Source of the DNA: Phyllobates terribilis
Lineage: Eukaryota
DNA: 64,000 nt
Direction: 5' to 3'
NCBI RefSeq assembly: GCF_046119375.1
Contig: NW_027362769.1
Coordinates: 358,794,001 to 358,858,000, forward strand
Part shown: piece after piece, positions 3,165-26,909 of the stretch
Layout of the letters: each line of letters opens with the position of its first letter
How positions within the stretch are numbered: position 1 is the stretch's first letter
Made by a program: the position numbers and the translations under genes
The notes under the pieces: model-generated
Told to the model about the DNA's origin: nothing
Databases searched by the model: none
What the model saw: only the letters and a program-made list of their open reading frames with translations

Positions 3165-3778
3165 TACTATATTTCTTTTTGCACTACCTAATCCATTGTC
3201 ATTGCTACTTTTTCTTTTACACATTTTATGCAACACCATTAACTTTTTACAATCTTTTCAATCACAATTTTTCAGCCCTTGCCAAGAAATACATTATGTA
3301 GGTAGCTACACATATAGAAAACAAATGTGGCAGCAGACAACTGTATTGGTTTAGTATGTACGGTTCTCAAGTTGGACTTGTAAAACAGGTGTTCAAAAAC
3401 ATCCACAGCTAAATGTCTACATTTTTTTTTATTTCTATTTAACAAAATTCAACCCCCTTCCCAAAAATAACATGATTAGAAATGCTTGGTAGGTACAAGT
3501 CTAAAAAGCCAGTAACTGCAACAGGGTGCTGTATAGATGAAACATGTACAGTTGTAACATTTGACTAATAAAATAGATGTGAGAAAAAAATTGTTTGCAA
3601 CATGCACACTTTGTAGGCTACATAAGACAGTTGTTGTTACATGTCTGGATTTGGGGTAATTTTCTTTTGTATTTTTTAAATCAATTATTTCCCTTCCACA
3701 AAATCGAAGAAAGAAATGAAAAAACTCAGCGCAGTTACTTCAGAAAAGCAAGCACACTGTCTTAGTCTGACACTAATG

Positions 3779-6269: not shown

Positions 6270-7403
6270 TGTAACGGGTCTGGTAGGCGGAACCTCTGAG
6301 CTACTATACAAGGGGGCGGTCCTTGTAAGGGAGCGGGTGGCGACCAGGGAAGACGGGCAGGCAGTCACAGCAGGTGACCGGGACAGTCTCTGGGTGAACG
6401 GGCAGGAGGTCACGGCAAGTGACTGGGACAGTCTCTGGGTAAACGGGCAGGAGGTCACAGCAAGTGACTGGGGCAGTCTCTGGGTGAACGGGCAGGAGGT
6501 CACAGCAAGTGACCGGGGCAGTCTCTGGGTGGACGGGCAGGAGGTCACAGCAAGTGACCGGGACAGTCTCTGGGTATAGGGTAGGTACGACCTGTGACGG
6601 CTGAGCCTCCAGGTAGGCTAGCAGGCGGATGACAGATGAGTGCTCCCAGGTGAGCAGGCGAGAGTCTCTGGAAAAGCAGGTGGTCACAGCACGTGACGGC
6701 AGAGCCTCCAGGTAGGCAAGCAGGCAGGTAGCGGAGGAGCGCTCCCAGGTGAGCGGGCAAGAGTCTCTGGAATAGCAGGTGGTCACAGCACGTGACGTCG
6801 GAGCCTCCAGGTAGGCAAGCAGGCAGGTAGCGGAGGAGCGCTCCCAGGTGAGCGGGCAAGAGTCTCTGGAATAGCAGGTGGTCACAGCACGTGACGGCGG
6901 AGCCTCCAGGTAGGCTAGCAGGCAGGTAGCAGAGGAGCGCTCCCAGGTGAGCGGGCAAGCTGGTCCATAGACAGACTGACAGGAGTAGGAAGGCAGACCG
7001 TCGGACCTCAGGCTAGCAAGCAGGTAGCAGGAATATCAGGCAGGAAACAGACAGCAAACTGGCAGGACTCTGGCAGGAATCAGGCAGGTAACTGGCAGGT
7101 AACTGGCAACGGGACCTGAGGGCTGAAGCAGAGTAGTGAACAGTGCAACAACATTGCTCGGGTACCTCCATTTTGGAGGAGGTGCCTTATATATGGTGAA
7201 GTCCTCCGGCCATTGGCCGGGGACTCCTTAGGACGGCGCGAGCGGCCCCTCTAAGAGGGAGGGAGCGCGCGCGCGCCCTAAGCACAGTGGCCGGGAAGGA
7301 GCGCGCGCTGCCAGCAGAGCGGGAGGAGGACGCCGGGCTCGGAGCAGAGAGGTGAGGGGAACAGCGTCCCTGCCTAGCAGAGGGCAGGGACGCCGACGCT
7401 ACA
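6270..7403 (-). repeat. Element A 3' LTR
   Basis: Near-identical to 11575-12708 (3 differences seen). Contains 45-bp (x~5) and 99-bp (x4) internal tandem repeats. Confidence 0.97.
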
Positions 7404-10400
7404 GTACCCCCCCCTTTAGGCCCCCCCTTTTTTAGGCCAGACAGAAATTTAGCAAGGATGAGAGGGGCATGGATGTTCTCTCGGGGCTCCCACGTTCTCT
7501 CTTCAGGACCAAACCCCTTCCAATCTACTAGAAAAAAGGTCTTCCCTCTTACCCTTTTGGTGGCCAGAATGTTCTCTACCTCAAATTCGTTTTCAGCGGA
7601 AACCAGAGCAGGAGGCGTGCCTGTAGACTTGGAAAAAGAGTTAAGTACCACAGGTTTGAGGAGAGATACATGGAAGGAGTTAGGGATCCGCAAGTTGGCC
7701 GGGAGTTTCAATTTATAGGCCACCGGGTTGATCTGACTGATGACCTCCAGAGGACCGATGAACCGAGGCCCTAACTTATAGGAAGGAATCTTGAGCCGGA
7801 CATACTTGGACGAGAGCCAGACCTTATCCCCTGGACGGAATTGAGGAGGATCCAGACGTTTTTTGTCAGCATGTCTTTTCATACGCTCGGATGACAGAAG
7901 GAGTGCGGACCGGGTACTCTCCCATATGGAGGAAAATTTGTTAACAAGAGATTCCGCAGCCGGATTGTCCACCGAGGTGGAGACGGGAAACGGGATCCGA
8001 GGATGCTGACCGAAGACTACAAAAAACGGGGATTTGGAGGAGGATTCGCTCTCGTGATTGTTGTACGAGAATTTGGCCCATGGCAGGAGATCCACCCAGT
8101 CAGAATGGTGGGCATTAACGAAGTGCCGGAGGTAACTGGTCAGGATCTGATTGATCCGCTCCACTTGACCATTAGACTGTGGGTGGTAAGCGGAGGAGAA
8201 GTCCAGGGTGACGTCTAGCAATTTACAAGTGGCTCTCCAGAAACGAGAAGTGAACTGTACCCCACGATCCGACACGATGTGACGGGGCAGGCCATGAAGA
8301 CGGAAGATGTGGCGGATAAAGTCTTTAGCCAGCTCGGGTGCAGACGGGAGGCCTGGCAGGGGAATGAAGTGAGCCATCTTGGAAAAGCGGTCAGCTACCA
8401 CCCAAATGACCGTACAACCGGCAGAGACGGGAAGATCAGTTATGAAGTCCATCGCTATATGCTGCCAGGGGGCAGCAGGTACTGGCAGAGGAAGGAGGCG
8501 ACCGGCTGGCAGGTGTCTCGGAACTTTGTTGCGGGCGCAGGACACACAGGCAGAAACAAAGTCTATTACATCCTTGTGCAGGTTAGGCCACCAGTAGTGC
8601 CAGGTAATAAGCTGGAGGGTCTTTTTCTGACCGGCGTGGCCAGCTAGTTTAGATGAATGACCCCAGTGTAGGATCTTCTCCCGATCAGGTACCGATACGA
8701 ACGTCTTACCGGGAGGGAGACGATTTAGACTCACGGGAGCCACCTGCATTACTCTGGCGGGATCGATGATATGTTTAGGTTCCTCCTCGAGGTCAGATAC
8801 CAGAAAGGATCGGGACAAGGCGTCCGCTTTGATGTTCTTGTAAGCCGGGCGAAAATGTAGAACAAAATCAAAGCGAGCAAAAAACAAGGACCACCGGGCT
8901 TGGCGCGGGTTAAGTCTCTGGGCATGCTGGAGGTAAGCCAAGTTCTTGTGGTCAGTGTAAATTATTACCGGATGAAGAGCCCCCTCGAGTAGGTAACGCC
9001 ACTCCTCCAATGCCAGCTTGATGGCCAATAACTCTCGGTCTCCTATGGAATAATTGCGCTCAGAAGAGGAGAAGAGTTTGGAGAAAAAGCCACAGGTTAC
9101 CATTCTCCCGGAAGATGATTTTTGAGTAAGTACAGCTCCAGCTCCAGAGGAGGAGGCGTCAACCTCCAGGAAGAACTGCTTGTTGCCGTCCGGACGATGC
9201 AGCACCGGGGCGGAAGAGAAGGCCTGTTTTAATGAAAGAAAGGCCTCCTCTGCTTCGGACGGCCACTCCTTGGGATTAGTACCCTTACGGGTGAGCGCGG
9301 AAATTGGGGCAGTCCGGGAAGAGAAGTGTGGTATGAAGAGGCGGTAGTAGTTGGCGAAGCCCAGGAACCGCTGAATGGCCTTCAACCCCTCCAGTCGGGG
9401 CCATTTCTCGATGGCAGACAGTTTCTCTGGATCCATTCGTAGGCCGGTCTGAGAAATAATGTAGCCCAAAAACGGAAGCGAGGTCTGCTCAAAGAGGCAC
9501 TTCTCATATTTAGCGAAGAGGTGATTCTGCCTGAGCCTGAGCAGGACCTGACGAACGTCCCTCCGGTGAGTCTGGAGATCCGGAGAGAAGACCAAGATGT
9601 CGTCCAGGTACACCACAACGCAGGAGTAGAGAAGGTCCCAGAAGATGTCATTGACCAACTCTTGAAAGACGGCAGGAGCGTTACAGAGACCAAAGGGCAT
9701 TACCAGATATTCATAGTGGCCGTCCCGGGTGTTGAATGCAGTCTTCCATTCATCCCCTTGACGGATACGGACCAGGTTGTACGCCCCACGGAGGTCCAGT
9801 TTGGTGAAGACTCTAGCCCCCCTCAGGCGATCAAATAATTCTGGAATGAGCGGAAGGGGGTACTTATTCTTCACCGTGATCTGGTTAAGGCCTCTATAGT
9901 CTATACAGGGACGGAGAGAGCCGTCCTTCTTTTTTACGAAGAAGAAGCCTGCTCCCGCCGGGGAGGTAGATTTCCGGATGAATCCCCTGGCCAAATTCTC
10001 CTCAATATATTCGGACATCGACCGGGTCTCAGCAGCGGACAATGGGTAAATACGCCCACGGGGAGGAGTAGTACCGGGTAACAGGTCGATAGGACAGTCG
10101 TATGGTCTATGAGGTGGTAATGTCTCTGCCTCCTTTTTATTAAAGACATCAGCAAATGACCAATAGGGAATCGGAAGTCCAGGTAGATTAGTTGGGGTAG
10201 GAGAAGGACGGACGGGACGAACAGGAACCAAACAAGTCTTATGACAGTCCTGTCCCCAGCGAAGGACTTCTCCGGTCTGCCAGTCAAGCACGGGTGCATG
10301 TCTCTGGAGCCAAGGTAGACCTAGTAAAAGGGCGTGAGAGAGTCCAGGCAGAACATGAAAAGAGATGCTCTCAGAATGCAGCATTCCCACCTGCAGAGTT

Positions 10401-10672
10401 ATGGATTCGGTGATGAGTTGGATGGGACGTGGTAAGAGGCCCCCATCCACAGCAGCGACAGATAATGGTACAGCCAGAGGTTTGGTGGGAATGCGGTATT
10501 TTTCTACCAGGGACTGTGAAATAAGATTCCCGGCCGCTCCAGAGTCAAGTTGGGCTAGTTCGAAATAACGATTCTCCCCGCAGATAATAGAGACTGACAG
10601 TAGCAGAGATGGAGAGGATTTATTCTTGTCTAGGTGGACCTCTCTGAGCGAACCTAGACACAGGCGTTTCCC
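7187..10672 (-). CDS. pol: Element A Pol (protease, RT, RNase H, integrase, chromodomain), entered by -1 frameshift
   Basis: The frame is open from the GGGAAAC slip site. LDSGAAG protease, YLDD RT, HHCC and DDE integrase, GPxF motif, EFEVENIL..VDWKGFGP chromodomain. Confidence 0.95.
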   Translation of the reverse strand, partial: GKRLCLGSLREVHLDKNKSSPSLLLSVSIICGENRYFELAQLDSGAAGNLISQSLVEKYRIPTKPLAVPLSVAAVDGGLLPRPIQLITESITLQVGMLHSESISFHVLPGLSHALLLGLPWLQRHAPVLDWQTGEVLRWGQDCHKTCLVPVRPVRPSPTPTNLPGLPIPYWSFADVFNKKEAETLPPHRPYDCPIDLLPGTTPPRGRIYPLSAAETRSMSEYIEENLARGFIRKSTSPAGAGFFFVKKKDGSLRPCIDYRGLNQITVKNKYPLPLIPELFDRLRGARVFTKLDLRGAYNLVRIRQGDEWKTAFNTRDGHYEYLVMPFGLCNAPAVFQELVNDIFWDLLYSCVVVYLDDILVFSPDLQTHRRDVRQVLLRLRQNHLFAKYEKCLFEQTSLPFLGYIISQTGLRMDPEKLSAIEKWPRLEGLKAIQRFLGFANYYRLFIPHFSSRTAPISALTRKGTNPKEWPSEAEEAFLSLKQAFSSAPVLHRPDGNKQFFLEVDASSSGAGAVLTQKSSSGRMVTCGFFSKLFSSSERNYSIGDRELLAIKLALEEWRYLLEGALHPVIIYTDHKNLAYLQHAQRLNPRQARWSLFFARFDFVLHFRPAYKNIKADALSRSFLVSDLEEEPKHIIDPARVMQVAPVSLNRLPPGKTFVSVPDREKILHWGHSSKLAGHAGQKKTLQLITWHYWWPNLHKDVIDFVSACVSCARNKVPRHLPAGRLLPLPVPAAPWQHIAMDFITDLPVSAGCTVIWVVADRFSKMAHFIPLPGLPSAPELAKDFIRHIFRLHGLPRHIVSDRGVQFTSRFWRATCKLLDVTLDFSSAYHPQSNGQVERINQILTSYLRHFVNAHHSDWVDLLPWAKFSYNNHESESSSKSPFFVVFGQHPRIPFPVSTSVDNPAAESLVNKFSSIWESTRSALLLSSERMKRHADKKRLDPPQFRPGDKVWLSSKYVRLKIPSYKLGPRFIGPLEVISQINPVAYKLKLPANLRIPNSFHVSLLKPVVLNSFSKSTGTPPALVSAENEFEVENILATKRVRGKTFFLVDWKGFGPEERTWEPRENIHAPLILAKFLSGLKKGGPKGGGTVASASLPSARQGRCSPHLSAPSPASSSRSAGSARSFPATVLRARARSLPLRGAARAVLRSPRPMAGGLHHI
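10612..10672 (-). promoter_or_regulatory. -1 ribosomal frameshift signal: G_GGA_AAC plus predicted H-type pseudoknot
   Basis: Slip heptamer at 10672-10666, 5-nt spacer, stem1 TGTCTAGGT/ACCTAGACA, stem2 GAGAGG/CCTCTC. Confidence 0.8.
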
Positions 10673-11561
10673 GACCTCTCCTGGCAGGTACGGATCCGGT
10701 GCTCCTTACTGCCACAGTAGAAGCAGCTCCCTGGTCGACCTGCATAGGCTCAGGAGAGTGTACCTGGGGAGAAACGGAGGGAGTGACGGGTTTCTGAAAA
10801 GTAGGAGCTAGACGTGGAAACCTCCTCTCACGGGTGACCTCTTTGGCACGCTCCTGGAACCGTAGGTCAATCCGGGTGGCAAGGGTTATTAAGTCATCGA
10901 GAGTGGTTGGAATGTCCCGACCGGCGAGTTCATCTTTAATACGGCCGGACAGACCCTCCCAGAAGACAGATACCAGAGCGTCGTTATCCCAAGCCAGCTC
11001 CGAGGCAAGGGTACGGAACCGTATGGCATATTGGCCCACGGTGAGATTTCGCTGGTGGAGGCGTAGCAGAGATGATGCGGATGAGGTCTTCCGTCCGGGT
11101 TCGTCGAAGACTTTCCGGAAAGCCGTGAGAAAGGCAGGCAAATCGGACACCAGGGGGTCTCCTCTCTCCCAAAGAGGATTTAGCCAGGCCAGGGCCTCCC
11201 CGGTGAGATGGGACATGATGAAGGCAATTTTGGCCCGGTCGGAGTTAAACTGGTGGGACAGGAGTTCAAAGTGCAGGGTGCACTGATTTATGAAGCCCCG
11301 AGCCTGAGCGGAGTCGCCTCCGAAGCGAGGAGGTGCAGAAAGCCGGGGTCCGGGGTAGGATACCATGGTATTGGTGGGCAGCGGAGCTGCCGGGTTGCGA
11401 GTCATGGCACTGGCGGTGGTTGCTGGTGGAGCAGTCAGAGTGTCCAGACGAGAATTGACATTCCGCAGGTGACCCAGGATGGACTCCTGTTGGGACCTCT
11501 GACGGGACAGTTCATGACAGAGGTCCGAGAGCGAGGGAGCTTGGGTGCCACCGGGTTCCAT
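10620..11561 (-). CDS. gag: Element A Gag (capsid), frameshifted upstream of the zinc knuckle
   Basis: PPRFGGD..FINQC..F..QF..D.AKI.FIMSHLTGEALAW capsid motif. The CFYCGSKEHRIRTC knuckle lies in a different frame after EPMQVD. Confidence 0.9.
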   Translation of the reverse strand: MEPGGTQAPSLSDLCHELSRQRSQQESILGHLRNVNSRLDTLTAPPATTASAMTRNPAAPLPTNTMVSYPGPRLSAPPRFGGDSAQARGFINQCTLHFELLSHQFNSDRAKIAFIMSHLTGEALAWLNPLWERGDPLVSDLPAFLTAFRKVFDEPGRKTSSASSLLRLHQRNLTVGQYAIRFRTLASELAWDNDALVSVFWEGLSGRIKDELAGRDIPTTLDDLITLATRIDLRFQERAKEVTRERRFPRLAPTFQKPVTPSVSPQVHSPEPMQVDQGAASTVAVRSTGSVPARRGRETPVSRFAQRGPPRQE

Positions 11562-11574
11562 GGCCCGAGCAAAC

Positions 11575-12708
11575 TGTAACGGGTCTGGTAGGCGGAACCT
11601 CTGAGCTACTATACAAGGGGGCGGTCCTTGTAAGGGAGCGGGTGGCGACCAGGGAAGACGGGCAGGCAGTCACAGCAGGTGACCGGGACAGTCTCTGGGT
11701 GAACGGGCAGGAGGTCACGGCAAGTGACCGGGACAGTCTCTGGGTAAACGGGCAGGAGGTCACAGCAAGTGACTGGGGCAGTCTCTGGGTGAACGGGCAG
11801 GAGGTCACAGCAAGTGACCGGGGCAGTCTCTGGGTGGACGGGCAGGAGGTCACAGCAAGTGACCGGGACAGTCTCTGGGTATAGGGTAGGTACGACCTGT
11901 GACGGCTGAGCCTCCAGGTAGGCTAGCAGGCGGATGACAGATGAGTGCTCCCAGGTGAGCAGGCGAGAGTCTCTGGAAAAGCAGGTGGTCACAGCACGTG
12001 ACGGCAGAGCCTCCAGGTAGGCAAGCAGGCAGGTAGCGGAGGAGCGCTCCCAGGTGAGCGGGCAAGAGTCTCTGGAATAGCAGGTGGTCACAGCACGTGA
12101 CGGCGGAGCCTCCAGGTAGGCAAGCAGGCAGGTAGCGGAGGAGCGCTCCCAGGTGAGCGGGCAAGAGTCTCTGGAATAGCAGGTGGTCACAGCACGTGAC
12201 GGCGGAGCCTCCAGGTAGGCTAGCAGGCAGGTAGCAGAGGAGCGCTCCCAGGTGAGCGGGCAAGCTGGTCCATAGACAGACTGACAGGAGTAGGAAGGCA
12301 GACCGTCGGACCTCAGGCTAGCAAGCAGGTAGCAGGAATATCAGGCAGGAAACAGACAGCAAACTGGCAGGACTCTGGCAGGAATCAGGCAGGTAACTGG
12401 CAGGTAACTGGCAACGGGACCTGAGGGCTGAAGCAGAGTAGTGAACAGTGCAACAACATTGCTCGGGTACCTCCATTTTGGAGGAGGTGCCTTATATATG
12501 GTGAAGTCCTCCGGCCATTGGCCGGGGACTCCTTAGGACGGCGCGCGCGGCCCCTCTAAGAGGGAGGGAGCGCGCGCGCGCCCTAAGCACAGTGGCCGGG
12601 AAGGAGCGCGCGCTGCCAGCAGAGCGGGAGGAGGACGCCGGGCTCGGAGCAGAGAGGTGAGGGGAACAGCGTCCCTGCCTAGCAGAGGGCAGGGACGCCG
12701 ACGCTACA
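11575..12708 (-). repeat. Element A 5' LTR (TATATAAG at 12498-12491)
   Basis: TG..CA termini; adjacent PBS-like sequence at 11564-11572. Confidence 0.97.
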
Positions 12709-12869
12709 AAAGGTTTATATACACAAAGATTACTATGCCTTTAAACAATTCTGGACTGCCCATATGATGATGTCATGTGTTTGGAAGCTTCTGATAGGTT
12801 TTTGGCAACATCTCAGTTAATTAGAGACACACCTGTGGGTGTATTTTAATGCACACCTAAAACACACTG

Positions 12870-14812
12870 TGTTACGCTCGCGCCCGGACTAACTGGCGTG
12901 AGCATGATTAGTGATCCCACTGTACCATGAACTGGGGAGTGCCTGGAGGGGCGTAACTAAGTATCTACCCGATCCGACCAAGGTCGCACGGCGGCTAACG
13001 ACTCCGTGAAATAAGGAGGAACCGAGCAGAGGGACCAGGTGCGACTCCAGGTCAGACCCCGGTCACAGTTGTTGACCCACACCGGGGAATGCAGGAACAG
13101 GCAGGTAGGCTGGCACACAGGCAGGTGGGTATTGGCAAGTACGGCTGGTATGCTAGCAGGTGGGCACTGGCAAGCACGGCTGGTATGTAGGCAGGAGGGG
13201 GTACTGGCCGGCTCGGCTGGAGTGCCAACAGGGAGGCACTAGCAGGTTGGAGCGCAGACTGGATAGAGGCCAGTACAGACTGGGAGACAGGAACAAAGCC
13301 GCATTAGCCGTAGACAGGCAAAGCAGAAAGGAACCGCCGGAGCGGTGGACTAGACAGAGCAAAGGGGAACCGCCGAAGCGGTGAGCAAGCAGAGCAGAAC
13401 TAAACTGCAGATGCGGCGAACAAGGCAGAGCAGAAAGGAACCGCCGGAGCGGTAACAAGATGAGCAAAGCAAAACCCGCAGATGCGGTAGACAAGCTAAG
13501 CAGAGCAAAACCTGCAGATGCGGTAGACAAGCTTGAGCAGAGCAAAACCCGCAGATGCGGTAGACAAGCTGAGCAGAGCAAAACCCGCAGATGCGGTAGA
13601 AAAGCTGAGCAGAGCAAAACCGCAGACGCGGTAGACTAGCTGAGCAGAGCAAAACTGCAGATGCGGTAGACAAGCTTGAGCAGAGCAAAACCCGCAGATG
13701 CGGTAGACAAGCTGAGCAGAGCAAAACCCGCAGATGCGGTAGACAAGCTGAGCAGAGCAAAACTCGCAGATGCGGTAGACAAGCTGAGCAGAGCAAAACC
13801 GCAGACGCGGTAGACTAGCTGAGCAGAGCAAAACCGCAGGTGCGGAGAACAAGCAGAGCAGAGCAAAACCGCAGGCGCGGAGAACAAGCAGAGCGAAGCA
13901 AAACCGCAATCGCGGTGAACAAGTAGAGCGAAGCAAAGCCACAGGTGTGGAGAACAAGCAGAGAGGAGCAAAAACCGCAAGCTCGGTGAACAGACAAAGC
14001 GGAGCAGAACCGCAAGCGCGGTGGACAAAATAGAGCAGAGCAGGACTGACAGTGCAAGCAGAAAGGCCTGGGCTCTGTTCACATGGCACAGATAAGAAAA
14101 TACAGTAAAATGGCTAGAACACAGAAGGGAGATACAGAGGAAGGGAAAAGAGACAAACAGAACCAGATACACACAAGGTACTTACAATGAAGTAGCGAGT
14201 GGACACAAAACTCACAAACAGAAGTACAGAGACAACAAATTGGAGCTAGGTGCAGGTTCAGACAATGCAGGAAAGGGAGGGTACGGACATAGAAACAAAA
14301 CAGGTAACAGGCTAAGGTACAGTTCAGACAGGAACTGCTACTGCAAGAAATACAGGAGCGAGTCTGGGTATACGGCCCCCAGAATGGCGGACTGACAGGC
14401 TAGGGTACAGTTCAGACAGGAACTGCTACTGCAAGGGATAAATGAACCAGTCTGGGAATACAGTCCCCAGAGTGGCAGAAACAGACTAGAAGACAGAGGT
14501 AACAGGACAGGACCTGGCAATACAGAATGCAAAGACAAACTGAGTGAAGATGTTGCTCAGGCGCCTCCTACTGGGTGAAGGGGGTTTAAATATCCAGGGA
14601 CTCACAGCAATAGGCAGGAGACATATTAGGGGTGTGCCCACAGCAGCTATAAGAAGCAGGAAGTAACCGGGCCGCCGCCCTAAGCAGTCAGACCAGAGCA
14701 TGAACACAGTAAGAACAGGAGCACGGCTTACAAACTGGACTGAAGGCTAAGATTGCGATCTTGCATAGTGGGAGATGGTGCACTATGCAAGTACGCCGCC
14801 AGGTATGTTACA
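12870..14812 (-). repeat. Element B LTR-1 (1943 bp) with 36-bp minisatellite
   Basis: TGTTACGCTCG..TATGTTACA termini; GCAGATGCGGTAGACAAGCTGAGCAGAGCAAAACCC repeats. Confidence 0.95.
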
Positions 14813-16616
14813 GTACCCCCCCCCCCTTACGCCCCAATTTCTTCAAGCCTGCAAGGGTCATCTGTAGAGAATTAGGAGGCCAATCCTTCTCTTCAAGAGG
14901 ATTACTTCTTCTGTCCACTAGAGGAAACGAAACTGGTCTCATCATCTTGGTGACTAGGATGCTTCCTCCCATCGAGCCATCCTCACTAACAGATGAAGTG
15001 GGAGAAGTACCAGTAACAGCACAAAGGAAAGTCTCTCTCCATTTGTTATCAGGAAGCACCCTGGTGGATTCAGGAGACAACTGGAGGTCCTCTGCCTGGT
15101 TGGAGGGGTGCAGAGACTCGGGGGTTACCACCGCCATGACATACACTTTGCCAAGCTTACTGGAAGAGATGGGCGTCGTACCAGGTACCGGGTGTAGAGA
15201 AGTCTCTCTCCGTTTATCAGGTAGCACCCCGGGGAATTCAGGAGGCAACTGGGGTTCCTCCGCCTAGTTGGAGGGCGGCAGAGACTTGGAGGTAGGTGCC
15301 GCCTTTATGGACTTGAGACCAGATTTATTAGAGATGGAGGGTCCTGGCTTTGGGACCATCTTCAATCTGGTTTCAGGGATGACATGTCTGTGAGGCGGGG
15401 CGGTACCTGAAGCCAGATCATTGGTACAATCGTCGAGACTGTGTGGGGACATCGCCTCCGCTTCTCTTCCTTTGGAGACTTCAGCGCACAGCGAGTCAGC
15501 GACTAGCAGATCTGGTGAAGAAGAAACTGCTGACTGTCCTGAAGATATGGGGACTGGACACCCCTTGTACTTTAGCAGTCCCCCAGGATACACCATGCAG
15601 GATCTCCAGATCTGAGCGGGTACTAGAAGTCTCCGTTCCGGACGACCTGTGGGTAAGCCAGTCAGCACCTGGAATGTGAACTTCTTCATGAGTAATGCTC
15701 CAATCTGGAGCTTAATTTGTACAGACATATTTTGACTGTTTTTGAGTAGGGCTCGTCCTTCAGCTGACAATGCCCAAACCGGCTTCTGAAGTTGTCGGAC
15801 GGGAATCAGACACCGACTCTTCAAGGTTTTAAGCCCGAAACTTCCGGTTAATCCGAGGCCTTCACTTGCCACGGAGACAGTCATGGTCATCTGTGGAGAG
15901 GAAACACTAACACCAAGGGCAGCCTCTCCTACAGGCCTAATGTCTAGGGATTCTCCAACCTTCACTGGACAAAGACCGTCAGGGGGTCCCAAACAACCGC
16001 AGCGGGACCGCAATCCGATTTTGTGACTGAGTTCTGGCTTCTGCTTTGCCTGACGAACATAGTCATCCTTCATGGATTCTGTGCGGAAAACTGCCTCTAC
16101 AGGCTGGGATACAGGAGGTCTTTGGGAGGACAGAACCTGGCGTGACGGTTTACCTCTACGCCTTGCTCGTCTGGACTGCCTCTTGAGGTTGGGAAGAGAA
16201 GTATTCTGTGGAGCATAGTCATCCTGTCTGGATTCTGGGTGGGCAGCAGTCTCTTCGGGCAGGAGGACTGGTAGGCTGCCTACACACATTACCCATCGGG
16301 GCTGCTCCGGGATATTGGGAAGGGAAGCTTTAGCAGAGGCTTCAGGGTTAGGGTCATCGAAGACCATTAGAAAGGCCACCAGGAAGGCCTGCGGGTCAAA
16401 GACGATAGGATCCCATGCTTCCCATAGGGGGGTGATCCATTTCAAGGCATCACTCGCTAGGTAGGACATCATAAATGCCAATTTAACATGATCGGTAGGA
16501 AAATAGTGAGCATAGAACTTGAAATGCAGCATGCATTGCTCCACAAACGCACGGCTTCGTTTTGGTTCCCCATAGTACCGTGGTGGATCCGCAGGAACAA
16601 GTGCTGATAGGTCCAT
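14808..16616 (-). CDS. Element B copy 1: Gag-capsid/degenerate-protease/repeat ORF (450 aa, then TAG, then an in-frame extension)
   Basis: N-terminal PPRYYGEP..FVEQC..HF..D.VK.AFMMSYL..DAL.W capsid motif. IKLQIGALL..FTFQVLTGL aligns with the element A protease C-terminus. ORFs 15264-16616 and 14808-15248 share one frame. Confidence 0.8.
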
Positions 16617-16758
16617 TTGGGCTGGTGCCTAAATCACCTGGGCCATAGCTTGAGAAAAAAAAAAATTTCTTGGTATACGTATTCGCCAGACAAGGATTCA
16701 AAATGTCTCTGAGAGCGAAAGGCTGTGGGGCTCAACGGGAACCATGGCCTGAGCAAAC

Positions 16759-18557
16759 TGTTACGCTCGCGCCCGGACTAACTGGCATGAGCATGATTAG
16801 TGATCCCACTGTACCATGAACCGGGGAGTGCCTGGAGGGGCGTAACTAAGTATCTACCCGATCCGACCAAGGTCGCACGGCGGCTAACGACTCCGTGAAC
16901 CAAGGAGGAACCGAGCAGAGGGACCAGGTGCGACTCCAGGTCAGACCCCGGTCACAGTTGTTGACCCACACCGGGGAATGCAGGAACAGGCAGGTAGGCT
17001 GGCACACAGGCAGGTGGGTATTGGCAAGTACGGCTGGTATGCTGGCAGGTGGGCACTGGCAAGTACGGCTGGTATGTAGACAGGAGGGGGTACTGGCCGG
17101 CACGGCTGGAGTGCCAACAGGGAGGCACTAGCAGGTTGGAGCGCAGACTGGATAGAGGCCAGTACAGACTGGGAGACAGGAACAAAGCCGCATTAGTGGT
17201 AGACAGGCAAAGCAGAAAGGAACCGCCGGAGTGGTGGACTAGACAGAGCAAAGGGGAACCGCCGAAGCGGTGAGCAAGCAGAGCAGAACTAAACCGCAGA
17301 TGCGGCGAACAAGGCAGAGCAGAAAGGAACCGCCGGAGCGGTAACAAGCTGAGCAAAGCAAAACCCGCAGATGCGGTAGATAAGCTAAGCAGAGCAAAAC
17401 CTGCAGATGCGGTAGACAAGCTTGAGCAGAGCAAAACCCGCAGATGCGGTAGACAAGCTGAGCAGAGCAAAACCCGCAGATGCGGTAGACAAGCTGAGCA
17501 GAGCAAAACTCGCAGATGCGGAGACAAGCTGAGCAGAGCAAAACCGCAGACGCGGTAGACTAGCTGAGCAGAGCAAAACCGCAGGTGCGGAGAACAAGCA
17601 GAGCAGAGCAAAACCGCAGGCACGGAGAACAAGCAGAGCGAAGCAAAACCGCAATCGCGGTGAACAAGTAGAGCGAAGCAAAGCCACAGGTGTGGAGAAC
17701 AAGCAGAGAGGAGCAAAAACCGCAAGCTCGGTGAACAGACAAAGCGGAGCAGAACCGCAAGCGCGGTGGACAAAATAGAGCAGAACAGGACTGACAGTGC
17801 AAGCAGAAAGGCCTGGGCTCTGTTCACATGGAACAGATAAGAAAATACAGTAAAATGGCTAGAACACAGAAGGGAGATACAGAGGAAGGGAAAAGAGACA
17901 AACAGAACCAGATACACACAAGGTACTTACAATGAAGTAGCGAGTGGACACAAAACTCACAAACAGAAGTACAGAGACAACAAATTGGTGCTAGGTGCAG
18001 GTTCAGACAATGCAGGAAAGGGAGGGTACGGACATAGAAACAAAACAGGTAACAGGCTAAAGTACAGTTCAGACAGGAACTGCTACTGCAAGAAATACAG
18101 GAGCGAGTCTGGGTATACGGCCCCCAGAATGGCGGACTGACAGGCTAGGGTACAGTTCAGACAGGAACTGCTACTGCAAGGGATAAATGAACCAGTCTGG
18201 GAATACAGTCCCCAGAGTGGCAGAAACAGACTAGAAGACAGAGGTAACAGGACAGGACCTGGCAATACAGAAAGCAAAGACAAACTGAGTGAAGGTGTTG
18301 CTCAGGCGCCTCCTACTGGGTGAAGGGGGTTTAAATATCCAGGGACTCACAGCAATAGGCAGGAGACGCATTAGGGGTGCGCCCACAGCAGCTATAAGAA
18401 GCAGGAAGTAACCAGGCCGCCGCCCTAAGCAGTCAGACCAGAGCATGAACACAGTAAGAACAGGAGCACGGCTTACAAACTGGACTGAAGGCTAAGATTG
18501 CGATCTTGCATAGTGGGAGATGGTGCACTATGCAAGTACGCCGCCAGGTATGTTACA
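16759..18557 (-). repeat. Element B LTR-2 (1799 bp, shared middle LTR)
   Basis: Same termini as LTR-1; 144 bp (4 x 36) shorter. Confidence 0.95.
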
Positions 18558-20358
18558 GTACCCCCCCCTTACGTCCCAATTTCTTCAAGCCTGCAAGGGT
18601 CATCTGTAGAGAATTAGGAGGCCAATCCTTCTCTTCAAGAGGATTACTTCTTCTGTCCACTAGAGGAAACGAAACTGGTCTCATCATCTTGGTGACTAGG
18701 ATGCTTCCTCCCATTGAGCCATCCTCAGTAACAGATGAAGTGGGAGAAGTACCAGGAACAGCACAAAGGAAAGTCTCTCTCCATTTGTTATCAGGAAGCA
18801 CCCTGGTGGATTCAGGAGACAACTGGAGGTCCTCTGCCTGGTTGGAGGGGTGCAGAGACTCGGGGGTTACCACCGCCATGACATACACTTTGCCAAGCTT
18901 ACTGGAAGAGATGGGCGGCGTACCAGGTAACGGGTGTAGAGAAGTCTCTCTCCATTTATCAGGTAGCACTCCGGGGAATTCAGGAGGCAACTGGGGTTCC
19001 TCCGCCTAGTTGGAGGGCGGCAGAGACTTGGAGGTAGGTGCCGCCTTTATGGACTTGAGACCAGATTTATTAGAGATGGAGGGTCCTGGCTTTGGGACCA
19101 TCTTCAATCTGGTTTCAGGGATGACATGTCTGTGAGGCGGGGCGGTACCTGAAGCCAGATCATTGGTACAATCGTCGAGACTGTGTGGGGACATCGCCTC
19201 CGCTTCTCTTCCTTCGGAGACTTCAGCGCACAGCGAGTCAGCGACTAGCAGATCTGGTGAAGAAGAAACTGCTGACTGTCCTGAAGATATGGGGACTGGA
19301 CCCCCCTTGTACCTTAGCAGTCCCCCAGGATACATCATGCAGGATCTCCAGACCTGAGCGGGTACTAGAAGTCTCGGCTCCGGACGACCTGTGGGTAAGA
19401 CAGTCAGCACCTGGAATGTGAACTTCTTCATGAGTAATGCTCCAATCTGGAGCTTAATTTGTACAGACATATTTTGACTGTTTTTGAGTAGGGCTCGTCC
19501 TTCAGCTGACAATGCCCAAACCGGCTTCTGAAGTTGTCGGACGGGAATCAGACACCGACTCTTCAAGGTTTTAAGCCCGAAACTTCCGGTTAATCCGAGG
19601 CCTTCACTTGCCACGGAGACAGTCATGGTCATCTGTGGAGAGGAAACACTAACACCAAGGGCAGCCTCTCCTACAGGCCTAATGTCTAGGGATTCTCCAA
19701 CCTTCGCTGGACAAAGACCGTCAGGGGGTCCCAAACAACCGCAGCTTGACCGCAATCCGATTTTGTGACTGAGTTCTGGCTTCTGCTTTGCCTGACGAAC
19801 ATAGTCATCCTTCATGGATTCTGTGCGGAAAACTGCCTCTACAGGCTGGGATACAGGAGGTCTTTGGGAGGACAGAACCTGGCGTGACGGTTTACCTCTA
19901 CGCCTTGCACGTCTGGACTGCCTCTTGAGGTTGGGAAGAGAAGTATTCTGTGGAGCATAGTCATCCTGTGTGGATTCTGGGTGGGCAGCAGTCTCTTCGG
20001 GCAGGAGGACTGGTAGGCTGCCTACACACATTACCCATCGGGGCTGCTCCGGGATATTGGGAAGGGAAGCTTTAGCAGAGGCTTCAGGGTTAGGGTAATC
20101 GAAGACCATTAGAAAGGCCACCAGGAAGGCCTGCAGGTCAAAGACGATAGGATCCCATGCTTCCCATAGGGGGGTGATCCATTTCAAGGCATCACTCGCT
20201 AGGTAGGACATCATAAATGCCACTTTAACCTGATCGGTAGGAAAATAGTGAGCATAGAACTTGAAATGCAGCATGCATTGCTCCACAAACGCACGGCTTC
20301 GTTTTGGATCCCCATAGTACCGTGGTGGATCCGCAGGAACAAGTGCTGATAGATCCAT
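18553..20358 (-). CDS. Element B copy 2 of the Gag/dead-protease fusion ORF
   Basis: 450 aa, about 15 aa differences from copy 1, same in-frame TAG at 19006-19008. Confidence 0.8.
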
Positions 20359-20732
20359 TTGGGCTGGTGCCTAAATCACCTGGGCCATAGCTTGAGAAAA
20401 AAAACATTTTCTTGGTGTACGTATTCGCCAGACAAGGATTCAAAATGTCTCTGAGAGCGAAAGGCTGTGGGGCTCAACGGGAACCATGGCCTGAGCAAAC
20501 TGTTACGCTCGCGCCCGGACTAACTGGCGTGAGCATGATTAGTGATCCCACTGTACCATGAACCGGGGAGTGCCTGGAGGGGCGTAACTAAGTATCTACC
20601 CGATCCGACCAAGGTCGCACGGCGGCTAACGACTCCGTGAACCAAGGAGGAACCGAGCAGAGGGACCAGGTGCGACTCCAGGTCAGACCCCGGTCACAGT
20701 TGTTGACCCACACCGGGGAATGCAGGAACAGG

Positions 20733-23700
20733 TGTTAGAACTCTCCTGTTAGGTTTTTTTTAGTTTGCTGGTCACATGACCATTTTTGCCTATTTAATCC
20801 GGCTCCGCCCTCCTGGTTTTGCTGGACTTCATTGTATTTACTACTCTTGAGCTAGCTTGGTGCTCTGTTGCCGTTCTCTGTTAGTTTTGCTAGGTCTTCT
20901 GACCTCTATGCTTTTTGTTGTGTGTTTGTCTTTGACTGCTACTATTTCTGCTAGGAGGTGTCCAACTTATCCCAGTCCCTAGTTCTTGTAGGGATCCCTC
21001 CCTCACATCTATAGGTCTTCGTTCAGACTAGCCGAGGACTTTAGCGGGTCTGATCGCAGGATCAGGTTCCCCGTTACATCGTAGGGATCTAGTTTAGTTC
21101 TATTGTAGGGACAGTTCTCCTGTCTTTCCTTAGTTCCGTAGCAGATCATAACAGTAAGTCCAGCCTTAAAAGAAAAAAAAAAAAAATTTTCTCTAAGGAA
21201 AGACCTCCAGTTTTCCTTCATGGTCTCGGTTCAAGATTTGGCTCAACACTTGCAGGGACTCTCTCTGGAGGTGACCAAGCTCCAACAACACGTGAGTAGC
21301 TGTTCTGGAGCACATTTTGTGGAACCAAAAGTACGTCTGCCTGATTTATTTTTTGGCGAACAACAATATTTTTTTTCTTTTAAAAATGCTTGTTTATTGT
21401 ATTTTCGTTTGAGACCCGGATCCTCTGGTGATGAATCACAGCGCATAGGGTTCATAATGTCACTTTTGAGCAAAGATCCTCAGGGATGGGCCTTCTCTCT
21501 CCAACCTAGTGATCCGTGCTTTAGATCAGTGGATAGTTTTTTTTCTGCTTTGGGTTTGTTGTATGATGATCCTGATCGTGTCTCATCTGCTGAGTCTGAA
21601 TTGAGACGTTTGAGGCAGGGATCAGGTAATGTGGAAAAATATTGTTTTCACTTCCGTCGGTGGTCTGCCCAGGTGGGGTGGAACGATTCAGCTTTGAAAA
21701 GCTTGTTTCTTGCAGGGCTAGGTGAAAGGGTTAAGGATTTACTGATTGCTTATCCCACACCTGGAAACTTGCAGGAGGCAATGCAATTAGCTATACGGGT
21801 GGACAGGAGACTGCGTGCAAGGGTTAATGAGAGCAAATCCTCTGCTATGTCAGCTCCGAGTCTTGAGAGGGTCTGTGCTGACAATGGAGAGCCGATGGAG
21901 ATTGGGGCGATGGCACCCCGCTCTCAGGAAAAAGATCGCAGGCTTTCTGAAGGCTTGTGCTTCTATTGCGGAAATTCTGGTCATTTCATTAAGAACTGTG
22001 TGCTTCGTATGAAGAAAGAAAAAAAAATGGTCAGTTATGCCCGTATTGCCTGTTTAAATTCTAAGGGAGTATTCCTATCTGCCACTACTGCTGCTCAGGA
22101 TGAGTTAATTGAATTTCGGGTATTTGTGGATTGTGGTTCTACTCTGAATGTGATTGATGGGGGATTCTTGGAAAAACTTAGATTAGAACCTAAAACTTTG
22201 TCATCCCCTATTGCTGTGGTTTCTGTTGATGGCTCTCCCTTGAAGAGTGTTACTCATAAGGTCTGTGAATTTCCCCTCACTATTAATGGTATTCACCAAG
22301 AAAATTTGGATTTGGTGGTATTGGATAATTTGCCTTCTCCAGTAATATTGGGGTTACACTGGTTAAAATTGCACAATCCTGTACTGGATTGGTCTACCAA
22401 TGAAATTAAGTCCTGGAGCCCTAAGTGTTATGACAAGTGTTGTAACGGACGTATTGCCGCTGTGGATAAAGGGGAATTGCCTGTACCTATTCAGGATTTT
22501 TGGAGAGTTTTTTCTGAGGAGGAGTCACAAATTTTGCCTCCCCATAGAGACTATGATTGTACCATTGAATTTGTCCCTGGAGCGACTCTTCCTAAAAGTC
22601 GTTTATTTAATCTTACTATTCCTGAGAGAAAGGCTTTGGAGGAATACATACAGACAAGCTTGGCCGCCGGTCACATTAGGCCTTCCAAGTCTCCTGTGGC
22701 TGTTGAATTTTTTTTTGTAAAAAAAAAAGATGGCGGTTTACGTCCTTGTCTGGACTTTCGTGAGATTAATAAAATTACTGTACGCAATCCTTACCCACTG
22801 CCATTGATTCCTGATTTATTTAACCAGTTAGTGGGGGCCAAGTGGTTCTCTAAAATTGATCTCCGGAGGGCATACAATCTGTTGCGCATGAAGGAGGGTG
22901 ATGAATGGAAGACTGCTTTTAACACTCCTGTGAGTCATTTTGAGAATCTGGTTATGCCTTTTGGTCTTACCAATGCTCCAGCATTTTTTCAGAATCTTAT
23001 TAATGACATCCTTAGACCTTTAATCGGCAAAAATGTGGTTGTGTATTTGGATGACATTCTGATTTATTTGCCTGATCTGGAGTCTCATTGGCGGAGCGTA
23101 CATGAGGTATTACAGTTATTAATGGACAATTCGCTTTTTGCTAAGCTGGAGAAATGTGAGTTTGCTGTACAGAGAATTAGTTTTTTGGGCTACATTATCT
23201 CCAGTGAAGGTTTTGAGATGGACCCGGTTAAAGTTCAAGCTGTGCAGGAATGGCCTAGGCCTATTGGTTTGAAATCGATACAGAGGTTTTTGGGTTTCGC
23301 CAATTATTACAGAAAATTCATAAAAAAAATTTCTATTATTGTCAAACCGCTGACCGATCTCACCAGGAAAGGTGCTAATGCGGTTCAGTGGACTTCTGAG
23401 GCCATTGAAGCTTTTGTGTTTCTAAAGGAGAGGTTCACCTCTGCTCCCATCCTTATGCAGCCTGATGTGACTAAGCCGTTTTTGGTTGAGGTTGATGCTT
23501 CTTCGGTGGGGGTCGGTGCGGTGTTGTCTCAGGAAAACAAGGATGGAGTACATCCCTGTGCCTTTTTTTCAAAAAAATTTTCTGAGACTGAACTTAATTA
23601 CGATATTGGTAATCGGGAATTGCTGGCGATTAAACTCGCATTTGAACACTGGCGTCACCTCTTGGAAGGTGCTGAATTTCCCATTCAGGTTTTCACTGAT

Positions 23701-25723
23701 CATAAAAATCTGATCTATCTTGATGCTGCCAAGCGCTTGAATGCCCGTCAGGCTAGGTGGGCACTTTTTTTCTCGCAGTTTAATTTTTCCGTTACTTACA
23801 TCCCGGGTACCAAGAATGTTAAAGCGGATGCTTTGTCTCGCAGCTTTTCTCCCATGGTCGGTGTTGAGGAGGAAGAGGAGAGCATTTTACAAGAAGGTGT
23901 TGTGATTGCTGCTTTGGACTCCATTTTGGAGGATGAGATTCTTAAAGCTCAGGAGAATGCCCCATCTAACACTCCCCATGGGAGGTTGTTTGTGCCTAGG
24001 ACCTTTAGGAGAGATTTGTTTGTTGAGTGTCATGAGTCTCGGTTGGCAGGTCATCCAGGAATTTCTGAGACCAAGAGACTTGTGGGTCGCAGTTTTTGGT
24101 GGCCTGGATGGCAGAAGGAAGTCATTAAGTGGGTGCGCCAATGTACTGTGTGTGCTAGATCCAAGTCTTCGCATGCTCCTGCTGCGGGGTTGCTTTGCCC
24201 TCTGGAGGTTCCTAGTGCACCTTGGACACATCTGGCTATGGACTTTATTGCTGACCTTCCCCCCTCTGAAGGTTTCACGGTCATCTGGGTGGTCGTGGAC
24301 CGTTTTAGCAAGATGTGTCACTTGGTTCCCTTCATCAAACTGCCTTGCGCTAAGACACTCGCTAAGGCCTTTGTCAAGGAAATTGTCAGACTACATGGTG
24401 TTCCTACTGACATTGTTTCTGATAGGGGACCTCAGTTCGTGGCTCGTTTTTGGCGTGCCTTTTGTGACAGGTTGGGAGTACATTTGTCATTTTCATCTGG
24501 ATATCATCCTGAGTCTAATGGCCAGACAGAAAGGAAGAACCAGGATGTTGAGCAGTTCTTGCGTTGTTTTGTGGCAGACAATCAAGAGGGGTGGTCTGAG
24601 TTTCTGCCACTTGCTGAATTTGCTCTTAACAACCATACATCCTCTTCTGCTGGGTGTTCGCCTTTTTTTTGTTGTTCTGGGAGACATCCGTCTTTTGGGT
24701 CATTCTCCAAATTGGTTTCGGCTGTGCCTGAGGAGGAGAGTTTTTCCGGTGATTTGGAGAGAGTTTGGACGGATGTGCGTGGTAATCTTCAGGAGGCTAA
24801 CAAAAAATCTAAGAGGTACTTTGATAGGAAACGGCAAGAGGTTTTGTTTGCTGTTGGTGACATGGTTTGGTTGTCCTCTAAGAATCTGCGATTGAGGATT
24901 CCTTCTAAAAAATTGGGTCCCAAGTTCGTAGGGCCCTTTAAGGTGCTTCAGATAGTTAACCAATCTGCTGTTAGGTTGGAGGTTCCTACGTCCTGGAAGA
25001 TTAACCCGGTGTTTCATGTTTCTCTGTTGAAAAAAGCTGATGTGTCTGATGGTGACGCCTCTGCCACTGTTCCTCCGGTGGTGGAGGACGGGGAATATGA
25101 AATTTCCCGCATCCTAAATTCTAGACGGTATAGAGGGAGTTTGCAGTATCTCGTCGCTTGGAAGGGTTTCGGACCTGAGGATAACTCATGGGTGAGGGCG
25201 GATGATGTTTATGCTTCCAGACTTGTCAGAGCGTTTCACAGGAGGTTTCCTGGTAAGCCTGGGCCTAGGGGATCCGGAGGATCCTCTTAGAAGAGGGGGT
25301 ACTGTTAGAACTCTCCTGTTAGTTTTTTTTTAGTTTGCTGGTCACATGACCATTTTTGCCTATTTAATTCGGCTCCGCCCTCCTGGTCTTGCTGGACTTC
25401 ATTGTATTTACTACTCTTGAGCTAGCTTGGTGCTCTGTTGCCGTTCTCTGTTAGTTTTGCTAGGTCTTCTGACCTCTATGCTTTTTGTTGTGTGTTTGTC
25501 TTTGACTGCTACTATTTCTGCTAGGAGGTGTCCAACTTATCCCAGTCCCTAGTTCTTGTAGGGATCCCTCCCTCACATCTATAGGTCTTCGTTCAGACTA
25601 GCCGAGGACTTTAGCGGGTCTGATCGCAGGATCAGGTTTCCCGTTACATCGTAGGGATCTAGTTTAGTTCTATTGTAGGGACAGTTCTCCTGTCTTTCCT
25701 TAGTTCCGTAGCAGATCATAACA
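20733..25723 (+). mobile_element. Element C: Ty3/Gypsy chromovirus nested in element B LTR-3
   Basis: 421-bp LTRs (20733-21153 and 25303-25723, 4 differences seen), ACAGG TSD, PPT AGAAGAGGGGG at about 25289-25299. Confidence 0.98.
21220..25290 (+). CDS. gag-pol: Element C single Gag-Pol ORF (1356 aa)
   Basis: CFYCGNSGHFIKNC knuckle, VDCG protease, YLDD RT, RNase H, HHCC/DDE integrase, EYEISRIL..VAWKGFGP chromodomain. Confidence 0.95.
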   Translation: MVSVQDLAQHLQGLSLEVTKLQQHVSSCSGAHFVEPKVRLPDLFFGEQQYFFSFKNACLLYFRLRPGSSGDESQRIGFIMSLLSKDPQGWAFSLQPSDPCFRSVDSFFSALGLLYDDPDRVSSAESELRRLRQGSGNVEKYCFHFRRWSAQVGWNDSALKSLFLAGLGERVKDLLIAYPTPGNLQEAMQLAIRVDRRLRARVNESKSSAMSAPSLERVCADNGEPMEIGAMAPRSQEKDRRLSEGLCFYCGNSGHFIKNCVLRMKKEKKMVSYARIACLNSKGVFLSATTAAQDELIEFRVFVDCGSTLNVIDGGFLEKLRLEPKTLSSPIAVVSVDGSPLKSVTHKVCEFPLTINGIHQENLDLVVLDNLPSPVILGLHWLKLHNPVLDWSTNEIKSWSPKCYDKCCNGRIAAVDKGELPVPIQDFWRVFSEEESQILPPHRDYDCTIEFVPGATLPKSRLFNLTIPERKALEEYIQTSLAAGHIRPSKSPVAVEFFFVKKKDGGLRPCLDFREINKITVRNPYPLPLIPDLFNQLVGAKWFSKIDLRRAYNLLRMKEGDEWKTAFNTPVSHFENLVMPFGLTNAPAFFQNLINDILRPLIGKNVVVYLDDILIYLPDLESHWRSVHEVLQLLMDNSLFAKLEKCEFAVQRISFLGYIISSEGFEMDPVKVQAVQEWPRPIGLKSIQRFLGFANYYRKFIKKISIIVKPLTDLTRKGANAVQWTSEAIEAFVFLKERFTSAPILMQPDVTKPFLVEVDASSVGVGAVLSQENKDGVHPCAFFSKKFSETELNYDIGNRELLAIKLAFEHWRHLLEGAEFPIQVFTDHKNLIYLDAAKRLNARQARWALFFSQFNFSVTYIPGTKNVKADALSRSFSPMVGVEEEEESILQEGVVIAALDSILEDEILKAQENAPSNTPHGRLFVPRTFRRDLFVECHESRLAGHPGISETKRLVGRSFWWPGWQKEVIKWVRQCTVCARSKSSHAPAAGLLCPLEVPSAPWTHLAMDFIADLPPSEGFTVIWVVVDRFSKMCHLVPFIKLPCAKTLAKAFVKEIVRLHGVPTDIVSDRGPQFVARFWRAFCDRLGVHLSFSSGYHPESNGQTERKNQDVEQFLRCFVADNQEGWSEFLPLAEFALNNHTSSSAGCSPFFCCSGRHPSFGSFSKLVSAVPEEESFSGDLERVWTDVRGNLQEANKKSKRYFDRKRQEVLFAVGDMVWLSSKNLRLRIPSKKLGPKFVGPFKVLQIVNQSAVRLEVPTSWKINPVFHVSLLKKADVSDGDASATVPPVVEDGEYEISRILNSRRYRGSLQYLVAWKGFGPEDNSWVRADDVYASRLVRAFHRRFPGKPGPRGSGGSS

Positions 25724-26909
25724 ACAGGCAGGTAGGCTGGCACACAGGCAAGTGGGTATTGGCAAGTACGGCTGGTATGCTGGCAGGTGGGCACTGGCAA
25801 GTACGGCTGGTATGTAGGCAGGAGGGGGTACTGGCCGGCACGGCTGGAGTGCCAACAGGGAGGCACTAGCAGGTTGGAGCGCAGACTGGATAGAGGCCAG
25901 TACAGACTGGGAGACAGGAACAAAGCCGCATTAGTGGTAAACAGGCAAAGCAGAAAGGAACCGCCGGAGCGGTGGACTAGACAGAGCAAAGGGGAACCGC
26001 CGAAGCGGTGAGCAAGCAGAGCAGAACTAAACCGCAGATGCGGTGAACAAGTAGAGCGAAGCAAAACCACAGGTGTGGAGAACAAGCAGAGAGGAGCAAA
26101 CACCGCAAGCTCGGTGAACAGACAAAGCGGAGCAGAACCGCAAGCGCAGTGAACAGACAGAGCGGAGCAGAACAGCAAGCGCGGTGGACAAAATAGAGCA
26201 GAACGGGACTGACAGTGCAAGCAGAAAGGACAGGGCTCTGTTCACATGGAACAGATAAGAAAATACAGTAAAATGGCTAGAACACAGAAGGGAGATACAG
26301 AGGAAGGGAAAAGAGACAAACAGAACCAGATACACACAAGGTACTTACAATGAAGTAGCGAGTGGACACAAAACTCACAAACAGAAGTACAGAGACAACA
26401 AATTGGAGCTAGGTGCAGGTTCAGACAATGCAGGAAAGGGAGGGTACGGACAGAGCAACAAAACAGGTAACAGGCTAAGGTACAGTTCAGACAGGAACTG
26501 CTACTGCAAGGGATAAATGAACCAGTCTGGGAATACAGTCCCCCGAGTGGCAGAAACAGACTAGAAGACAGAGGTAACAGGACAGGACATGGCAATACAG
26601 AATGCAAAGACAAACTGAGTGAAGGTGTTGCTCAGGCGCCTCCTACTGGGTGAAGGGGGTTTAAATATCCAGGGACTCACAGCAATAGGCTGGAGACGCA
26701 TTAGGGGTGCGCCCACAGCAGGTATAAGAAGCAGGAAGCAACTGGGCCGCCGCCCTAAGCAGTCAGACCAGAGCATGAACACAGTAAGAACAGGAGCACG
26801 GCTTACAAACTGGACTGAAGGCTAAGATTGCGATCTTGCATAGTGGGAGATGGTGCACTATGCAAGTACGCCACCAGGTATGTTACACACTGCTTCTTTG
26901 TGTAGCATC

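Follow-up and report, generated by a model that had tools for sequence, protein, structure and literature searches.

A high-copy LTR retrotransposon family of Phyllobates terribilis without enzymes and with a maintained Gag-derived reading frame

The element B tandem and its reading frame

The window, a stretch of 64,000 nucleotides of Phyllobates terribilis DNA, carries on its minus strand two copies of an LTR element, here termed B, arranged as LTR-interior-LTR-interior-LTR (12870-26887) and enclosed as a whole by a single 5-bp target duplication (Table 1). The long LTRs flank short interiors of 1946 and 1943 bp, as described in the initial annotation of this DNA. The tandem and a neighbouring gag-pol chromovirus, A, both lie inside one Tc1-like transposon with inverted ends at 6065 and 28133. 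Two more Tc1-type transposons are located at 1537-3172 and 31730-33385, the latter with a 358-codon open transposase frame and ends that are 98% complementary. The window also contains a 472-codon Ser/Lys/Pro-rich open frame without a Pfam match (59140-60558, minus strand), probably a large host exon, as well as a 67-bp palindromic repeat array and a 32-bp minisatellite of ~35 copies (37400-40050 and 56394-57800).

Table 1. Features of the B tandem and adjoining elements in the window.
Feature	Position	Strand	Remark
Left 5-bp target duplication of whole tandem	12865-12869	+	Same 5-mer at 26888-26892
LTR1 (3' LTR of copy 1), 1943 bp	12870-14812	-	TG..CA ends; internal 35-bp repeats
Polypurine tract at LTR boundary	14813-14828	-	Frame of last segment stops at first LTR bases
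Degenerate chromodomain/integrase C-terminal remnant	14814-15014	-	Behind stop in copy 1; no Pfam match
168-bp (56-codon) repeat units	14992-15294	-	2 to 5 per copy in the family
In-frame stop shared by the window copies	15264-15266	-	Seen in 1/28 other copies examined
Remnant of first RT residues	15372-15491	-	0/500 shuffles
Protease-derived segment, fused in frame to Gag tail	15597-15965	-	Catalytic strand and second motif deleted
Junction of lost capsid C-lobe, basic Gag tail, degenerate zinc-knuckle region	15966-16316	-
Capsid N-terminal lobe, DUF4939-like	16317-16604	-
Leader with PBS-adjacent ATG and second ATG	16617-16745	-	Both stop-terminated in copy 1
Primer-binding site (PBS)	16747-16758	-	Complementary to element's own LTR
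LTR2, 1799 bp, common to both copies	16759-18557	-	5' LTR of copy 1, 3' LTR of copy 2
TATA-like box, then 10-nt self-primer ~30 nt on	18298-18337	-	Self-primer complementary to PBS
Copy 2 interior	18558-20500	-	98.5% identical to copy 1, identical stops
LTR3, ~1396 bp	20501-26887	-	Split by Gypsy element C
Full-length Gypsy element C	20733-25723		Within LTR3; own 5-bp duplication
Neighbour A, full gag-pol chromovirus, B relative	6270-12708	-	LTRs 99.7% identical

The main frame of copy 1 runs from an ATG at 16616 through 450 codons to the stop at 15264-15266, and a further 151 in-frame codons lead from there to the LTR edge; in 1000 shuffles of the interior, the longest frame averaged 115 codons and reached 249 at most. 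The region 14808-16616 had been read as one ORF. A 450-codon frame is indeed present in both copies, but the stop interrupts the ORF, leaving beyond it most of the repeats and the chromodomain remnant, which the first reading had missed. The open frame of two "diverged" copies had also been offered as support. The copies, however, are 98.5% identical, share one target duplication and have their stops in common, making them twins of one decayed insertion that provide no independent support for an open frame; they differ by 20 nonsynonymous and 7 synonymous codon changes. The PBS-adjacent ATG, put forward as part of a junction shared with A, cannot be read into the main frame in either copy because stops intervene, and in roughly half of the B copies it lies in another frame. 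The leader upstream of the ORF would be ~1.5 kb long with 5-6 upstream ATGs. Across the family, the B frame spans the interior and most commonly ends on entering the 3' LTR. It joins Gag tail and protease, whereas A uses two overlapping frames.

Protein parts, family and relatives of element B

Retention of the capsid N-terminal lobe, as first proposed, is confirmed by 48% identity to A Gag (E 1e-26). The lobe covers residues 5-100, with a DUF4939 Pfam match at E 1.7e-5, below the curated cut-off, and a profile match to Ty3 Gag 37-122 (E 9e-5). Its structure model (pLDDT 88) has capsid lobes as best-matching folds, with VIA-align Z scores of 7.6-9.1 that lie below the bar for helical bundles and do not distinguish N- from C-lobes, so that the identity of the lobe rests on sequence. 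A phmmer search of the N-lobe alone against PDB gave no match, nor did Foldseek at E 0.001. The capsid C-lobe is absent, and B thus lacks a whole capsid. The basic region that follows had been taken as a replacement of the rest of Gag; in one full Gag (P0016) it aligns instead to the tail and the zinc-knuckle region (score 58, 0/500 shuffles), although the alignment to another full Gag (P0004) is not significant (128/500 shuffles).

The protease-like continuation was correctly recognized, the protease-to-RT region being 29% identical to A Pol (E 7e-19), as was the RT-proximal remnant behind it (0/500 shuffles). The DSG catalytic site is missing, as initially noted, but it was lost through a deletion of ~10 residues and not by substitution. 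A second lesion removes 4 residues at the second motif, and B therefore has neither the D-S/T-G motif nor the second conserved motif of active retropepsins; two rows were left out of the protease alignment after a stop in one of them. The structure model of this segment (pLDDT 42, 9 rows) is unusable and silent on folding. The repeat units were considered as duplicates of the RT-proximal motif and rejected, the similarity being weak for the first unit (13/500 shuffles) and null for the second (284/500). The chromodomain remnant gives a pairwise score of 100 (0/500 shuffles) and no Pfam Chromo match.

These features define element B as a non-autonomous, enzyme-less Tf1/sushi-type LTR retrotransposon in high copy. 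B lacks RT, RNase H and integrase core, has the TG..CA LTR ends and 5-bp target duplication of Tf1/sushi chromoviruses, the latter intact in 20 of 22 sampled copies with both ends, and forms a multicopy dispersed family in which a gag-derived frame is maintained. A 22-mer spanning the LTR end and PBS has 2,040 exact matches in the genome, 119 of them A-like, which puts the B-type leader at ~1,900; among 90 matches sampled in positional order, 83 were B-type. The exact 22-mer occurs in only 14 of the 30 best B copies, suggesting roughly 4,000 B interiors. The PBS is complementary to a 10-nt stretch of B's own LTR, ~30 nt after a TATA-like box, and the same self-primer arrangement is found in A and C. 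Self-priming is described as a mark of the Tf1/sushi group (bioRxiv 10.1101/2022.12.06.519325), and B RNA is predicted from these signals to be self-priming, the complementary stretch lying at the predicted 5' end of the RNA. A short inverted repeat lies between the TATA-like box and the self-primer (18308-18330, minus strand, and likewise in the A LTR and at loci L102, L120 and L101); main B, protease-less B and A each have their own version of it, with complementarity kept.

Head-to-tail B tandems recur in the genome (L003/L006, L049/L050 and G000:C1:365431363-365443191), and L003 and L006 have private stops in common, like the window twins. B copies with identical scores and frame length are found on many small unplaced contigs (G000 C108, C325, C338, C397, C621, C1090 and C1542) and probably belong to some larger unit that was amplified or duplicated. 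A candidate non-coding mini-family (L033/L034) was rejected, as it reflects local deletions reaching into the LTR.

In a subfamily comprising 5 of 90 sampled elements, everything between the N-lobe and the repeats is essentially missing, namely the basic patch and knuckle as well as the protease and the RT remnant, and the loss preserves the frame in all five copies. These carry 4-5 repeats, versus mostly 2-3 in the others, and one has a perfect target duplication and an LTR divergence of 1.5%. The protease-like part is thus dispensable. What stays constant across the family is the N-lobe, the repeats, the chromodomain-like end and an open frame connecting them; the N-terminal leader is labile.

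Contigs from four presumed-RNA runs, all belonging to one study, cover 29-30 of 30 B bins, a coverage that is not counted here as evidence of expression. In all four runs, a 40-nt skip (15936-15975) interrupts the main contig across the protease-like part. The skip is frame-shifting, would have GT..AG ends on the sense strand with the cut moved by one base, and is found at 0 of 113 genomic loci spanning the site (some places counted twice). It reflects either one transcribed deleted copy, a lineage from another species or an unusually small intron.

A full HMMER protein search returned 473 matches at E 0.001, with matches to the linker-protease part in Dendrobates tinctorius (XP_073442088) and Ranitomeya imitator (CAJ0964197). 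XP_073442088 matches at 41% over 202 residues and has both protease deletions as in B, and a quick tree places B and the proteins of these two species apart from autonomous proteases (SH-aLRT 100). This grouping implies that the dead protease arose once, before the lineages split or by transfer among them. In one Ranitomeya gene model (P0003), B-type sequence is joined to a short-chain dehydrogenase start, probably through annotation fusion. Word-index protein searches for relatives yielded no matches in 7,993 candidates and none in 1,050 shorter ones, and one such search (P0002) recovered only itself among 5,003 candidates. Atlas look-alikes of B were discarded as generic gag-protease clusters.

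The B N-lobe falls among A-like elements, well away from C (27% identity), on a long branch whose position within the A-like group is unsettled; no autonomous family closer to B was found, the best N-lobe identity being 54%. Exact matches to A-type leaders number 17,514 in the genome, and the LTR divergence of A-type copies (median 0.6%, n=19; 19/20 measurable) identifies family A as a very young burst. LTR divergence has a median of 3.7% in B (range 1.5-7.0, n=32, none under 1.5%) and is 5.0% (4.5-8.3%; 5/23 measurable) in older A-like elements with B's PBS and 3' LTR end, the LTR windows measured differing slightly between the three groups. Since its LTRs are this much more diverged than those of A, B seems not to have taken part in the recent burst of A and was more likely carried by an earlier A-lineage wave. 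B had been proposed as a parasite of A-type elements; A itself as the helper is not supported by these ages, nor by the presence of A's PBS variant in only one B leader among the first 100 in the list. B-type leaders stand to older A-like leaders with the same PBS at ~16 to 1. Another A-like element (L060:1500-3000), with a near-full Gag joined to an integrase C-terminal and chromodomain part, appears from its sequence to be a second, independent deletion derivative.

Selection on the B family

From 73 loci with both interior ends, removal of 3 short copies and 2 tandem twins left 68 full-length B copies, of thousands, for selection analysis. Real copies were compared pairwise, and variants were split into private and clade-diagnostic changes. 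Private changes (697 N / 247 S) give a dN/dS of 0.96 (bootstrap 0.83-1.10), whereas clade-diagnostic changes (77 N / 58 S) give 0.56 (0.40-0.80), a significant contrast (Fisher p 9e-5). Stops are absent from clade-diagnostic changes, versus 7.1 expected, and number 42 among private ones, versus 40.1 expected. Two shifted frames, used as controls, give 0.99 and 1.07, and across four threshold settings dN/dS ranged from 0.50 to 0.56, with all bootstrap intervals below 1. Indels present in at least 4 copies are mostly in frame (10, versus 3 shifting, of which one is a homopolymer slip and two are rows of one compensated alignment artefact), while private indels are mostly shifting (44, versus 18 in frame).

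The clade-diagnostic signal is strongest in the N-lobe, with 1 N / 7 S (CI 0-0.31) against a dN/dS of 0.63 (0.46-0.94) in the rest of the frame, on a small count of 8 to 15 changes that shrinks to 1 N / 3 S, with a CI to 1.07, at the strictest setting. In 107 N-lobe rows, variants found in at least 6 copies are 17 N / 18 S, versus 131 / 52 for singletons (p 0.01), and shifted frames give p 0.67 and 0.83. The chromodomain remnant has 15 N / 14 S clade-diagnostic changes, and dN/dS is 0.99 in the RT-proximal part and 0.7-1.0 in the linker and RT-proximal parts.

The frame is open from the N-lobe to its end in 6 of 41 sampled full-length copies and broken in the other 35. The initial annotation had named dN/dS near 1 with frequent disruption as grounds for regarding B as a decaying derivative. 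Private changes show this pattern (0.96; 35/41 broken) and clade-diagnostic changes, at 0.56, do not; for a multicopy element it is the wrong test. Private neutrality and purified clade-diagnostic changes together indicate that copies die neutrally, but that a filter on source lineages kept the frame open and the N-lobe intact. The claim that B is non-autonomous, derived from the A-type lineage and endowed with a protein of consequence is supported by the family-wide test, but not by the two-copy argument with which it was made. For filtering of this kind, the RNA that encodes the protein would have to gain from it, the source loci active in a cell would have to be few, or the host would have to exert the selection. 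Fixed-locus selection, as in domesticated SIRH/RTL genes, is not seen in these 68 of thousands of copies: private dN/dS is 0.96, and the window copies are broken.

A possible role for the half capsid and comparison with known systems

The usual view of non-autonomous LTR elements is that they require RNA signals only, or contribute whole Gag. A capsid half that is unable to assemble alone and is under selection in replicating lineages points instead to a protein-mediated cis route into helper particles. We put the probability at about one half that the frame was kept open and the N-lobe conserved during replication through docking of the half capsid on an A-lineage helper particle, bringing its own RNA. 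The LTR promoter, with signals seen in B and an activity extrapolated from Tf1, would make a self-priming B RNA, and RT, integrase, protease and full capsid, all absent from B, would have to come in trans. The N-terminal N-lobe would contact helper Gag through a lobe-to-lobe interaction like that of RTL8 with PEG10, and the long, loosely constrained tail would tether the nascent lobe to its own mRNA through the ribosome, yielding the cis advantage that lineage-level selection requires. The basic patch would also help to hold the mRNA in the main subfamily; as the protease-less subfamily lacks it, direct RNA binding cannot be general. After insertion each copy, both window copies included, decays neutrally. 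A tether role would fit the strict frame constraint, weak residue constraint and variable repeat number, and protection from nonsense-mediated decay fits the tail equally.

Co-assembly of the B protein with helper capsids, as originally suggested, is plausible by analogy with RTL8, which is reported to be unable to form particles alone, to bind the PEG10 N-lobe and to be incorporated (PMC11684626). In the same report RTL8 lowers particle yield, which counts against docking. So do the long leader with its upstream ATGs, the PBS-adjacent ATG that is often out of frame, the small number of N-lobe changes and the frame-shifting skip in the main contig. Cis packaging has been proposed for MaLR elements in a discussion (PMC10735291). 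A more far-reaching version, in which the N-lobe, synthesized on its own mRNA and attached to it through a long spacer, serves as a "boarding pass" that joins the helper lattice and loads the RNA, B being a selfish precursor state of LDOC1/RTL8 kept across poison-frog lineages, is offered tentatively, as a possibility we would not yet favour.

It is unlikely that translation itself is what matters, an open frame up to the LTR edge shielding the RNA from nonsense-mediated decay. Such shielding would account for a frame that spans the interior and mostly stops at the first 3' LTR bases, for the lack of shared stops and for the near-neutral linker and RT-proximal parts; it may still explain the tail, but leaves the conserved N-lobe (1 N / 7 S) and the value of 0.63 elsewhere unexplained. 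Selection could also act on the host, with expressed source loci serving the animal, in development as zebrafish Bik Gag does or as a restriction decoy like RTL8, and acting as templates. The N-lobe-only architecture shared with LDOC1 and RTL8 (PMC11011659, PMC11684626), the persistence of B-type sequence across frog species and the Bik precedent (PMC12067270) would all suit this explanation. We nevertheless think it improbable, given that private changes are neutral, that 35 of 41 sampled copies are broken and that no conserved locus is known; the abundance of A-type leaders in the same genome means that restriction of A is not evident.

There is a rather slim chance of selfish interference, whereby N-lobes in helper particles cut the packaging of helper RNA and raise the share of B without carrying its own RNA. 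RTL8 is described as entering PEG10 particles through the N-lobe and reducing them (PMC11684626), and the ~16 to 1 excess of B-type leaders would agree with such an effect, although that ratio rests on one exact pattern. A benefit common to all B RNAs would, however, let stop-bearing lineages spread, and no stops are found among clade-diagnostic changes. A merely decaying deletion derivative, its frame open by youth or luck, is very improbable and largely refuted by the selection tests, since private neutrality, the broken state of most copies and of the window copies and the unconfident protease model are outweighed by 48% and 29% identity to autonomous relatives with a frame open across several deletions, by a frame-specific purifying signal and by lesions in common with another species.

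B resembles Tf1/sushi-group chromoviruses of the sushi-ichi type (bioRxiv 10.1101/2022.12.06.519325) in its LTRs, own-LTR PBS, polypurine tract, DUF4939-like lobe and a putative chromodomain remnant at the frame's end, and differs from autonomous members in lacking RT, RNase H, integrase core and capsid C-lobe and in the fusion of Gag tail and protease. RLG_Quinta (PMC11302176), RLG_Sabrina_SA and WHAM (PMC9744471) and TR-GAG combine, like B, high copy number, absence of RT and IN, an intact Gag-derived frame and the PBS of an autonomous relative. These are plant lineages described as supplying GAG or GAG-protease, whereas B cannot give a whole capsid or an active protease. ERVL-MaLR (PMC10735291) and zebrafish Bik-1/Bik-2 (PMC12067270) are vertebrate LTR elements with a single gag frame, like B, but are retrovirus-derived and not Metaviridae. 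Bik Gag has a demonstrated host function (PMC12067270), whereas B is known here from sequence.

RTL8 and LDOC1 (SIRH/RTL; PMC11684626, PMC11011659) have, as B does, a sushi-type capsid N-lobe without a C-lobe, but are fixed host genes, whereas B is a mobile family with neutral evolution of its individual copies; the likeness to domesticated LDOC1/RTL genes drawn in the initial annotation is therefore one of architecture only. A literature search, with Repbase, subscription papers and supplements outside its scope, found no description of family B or of a mobile N-lobe-only element under selection. Gag-only passengers (MaLR, Bik, Quinta) are already known, and N-lobe-only capsids are known as host genes. 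Family B suggests a possible route by which N-lobe-only capsid genes arise within a transposon before domestication, and provides a natural setting in which cis preference of LTR elements can be studied.
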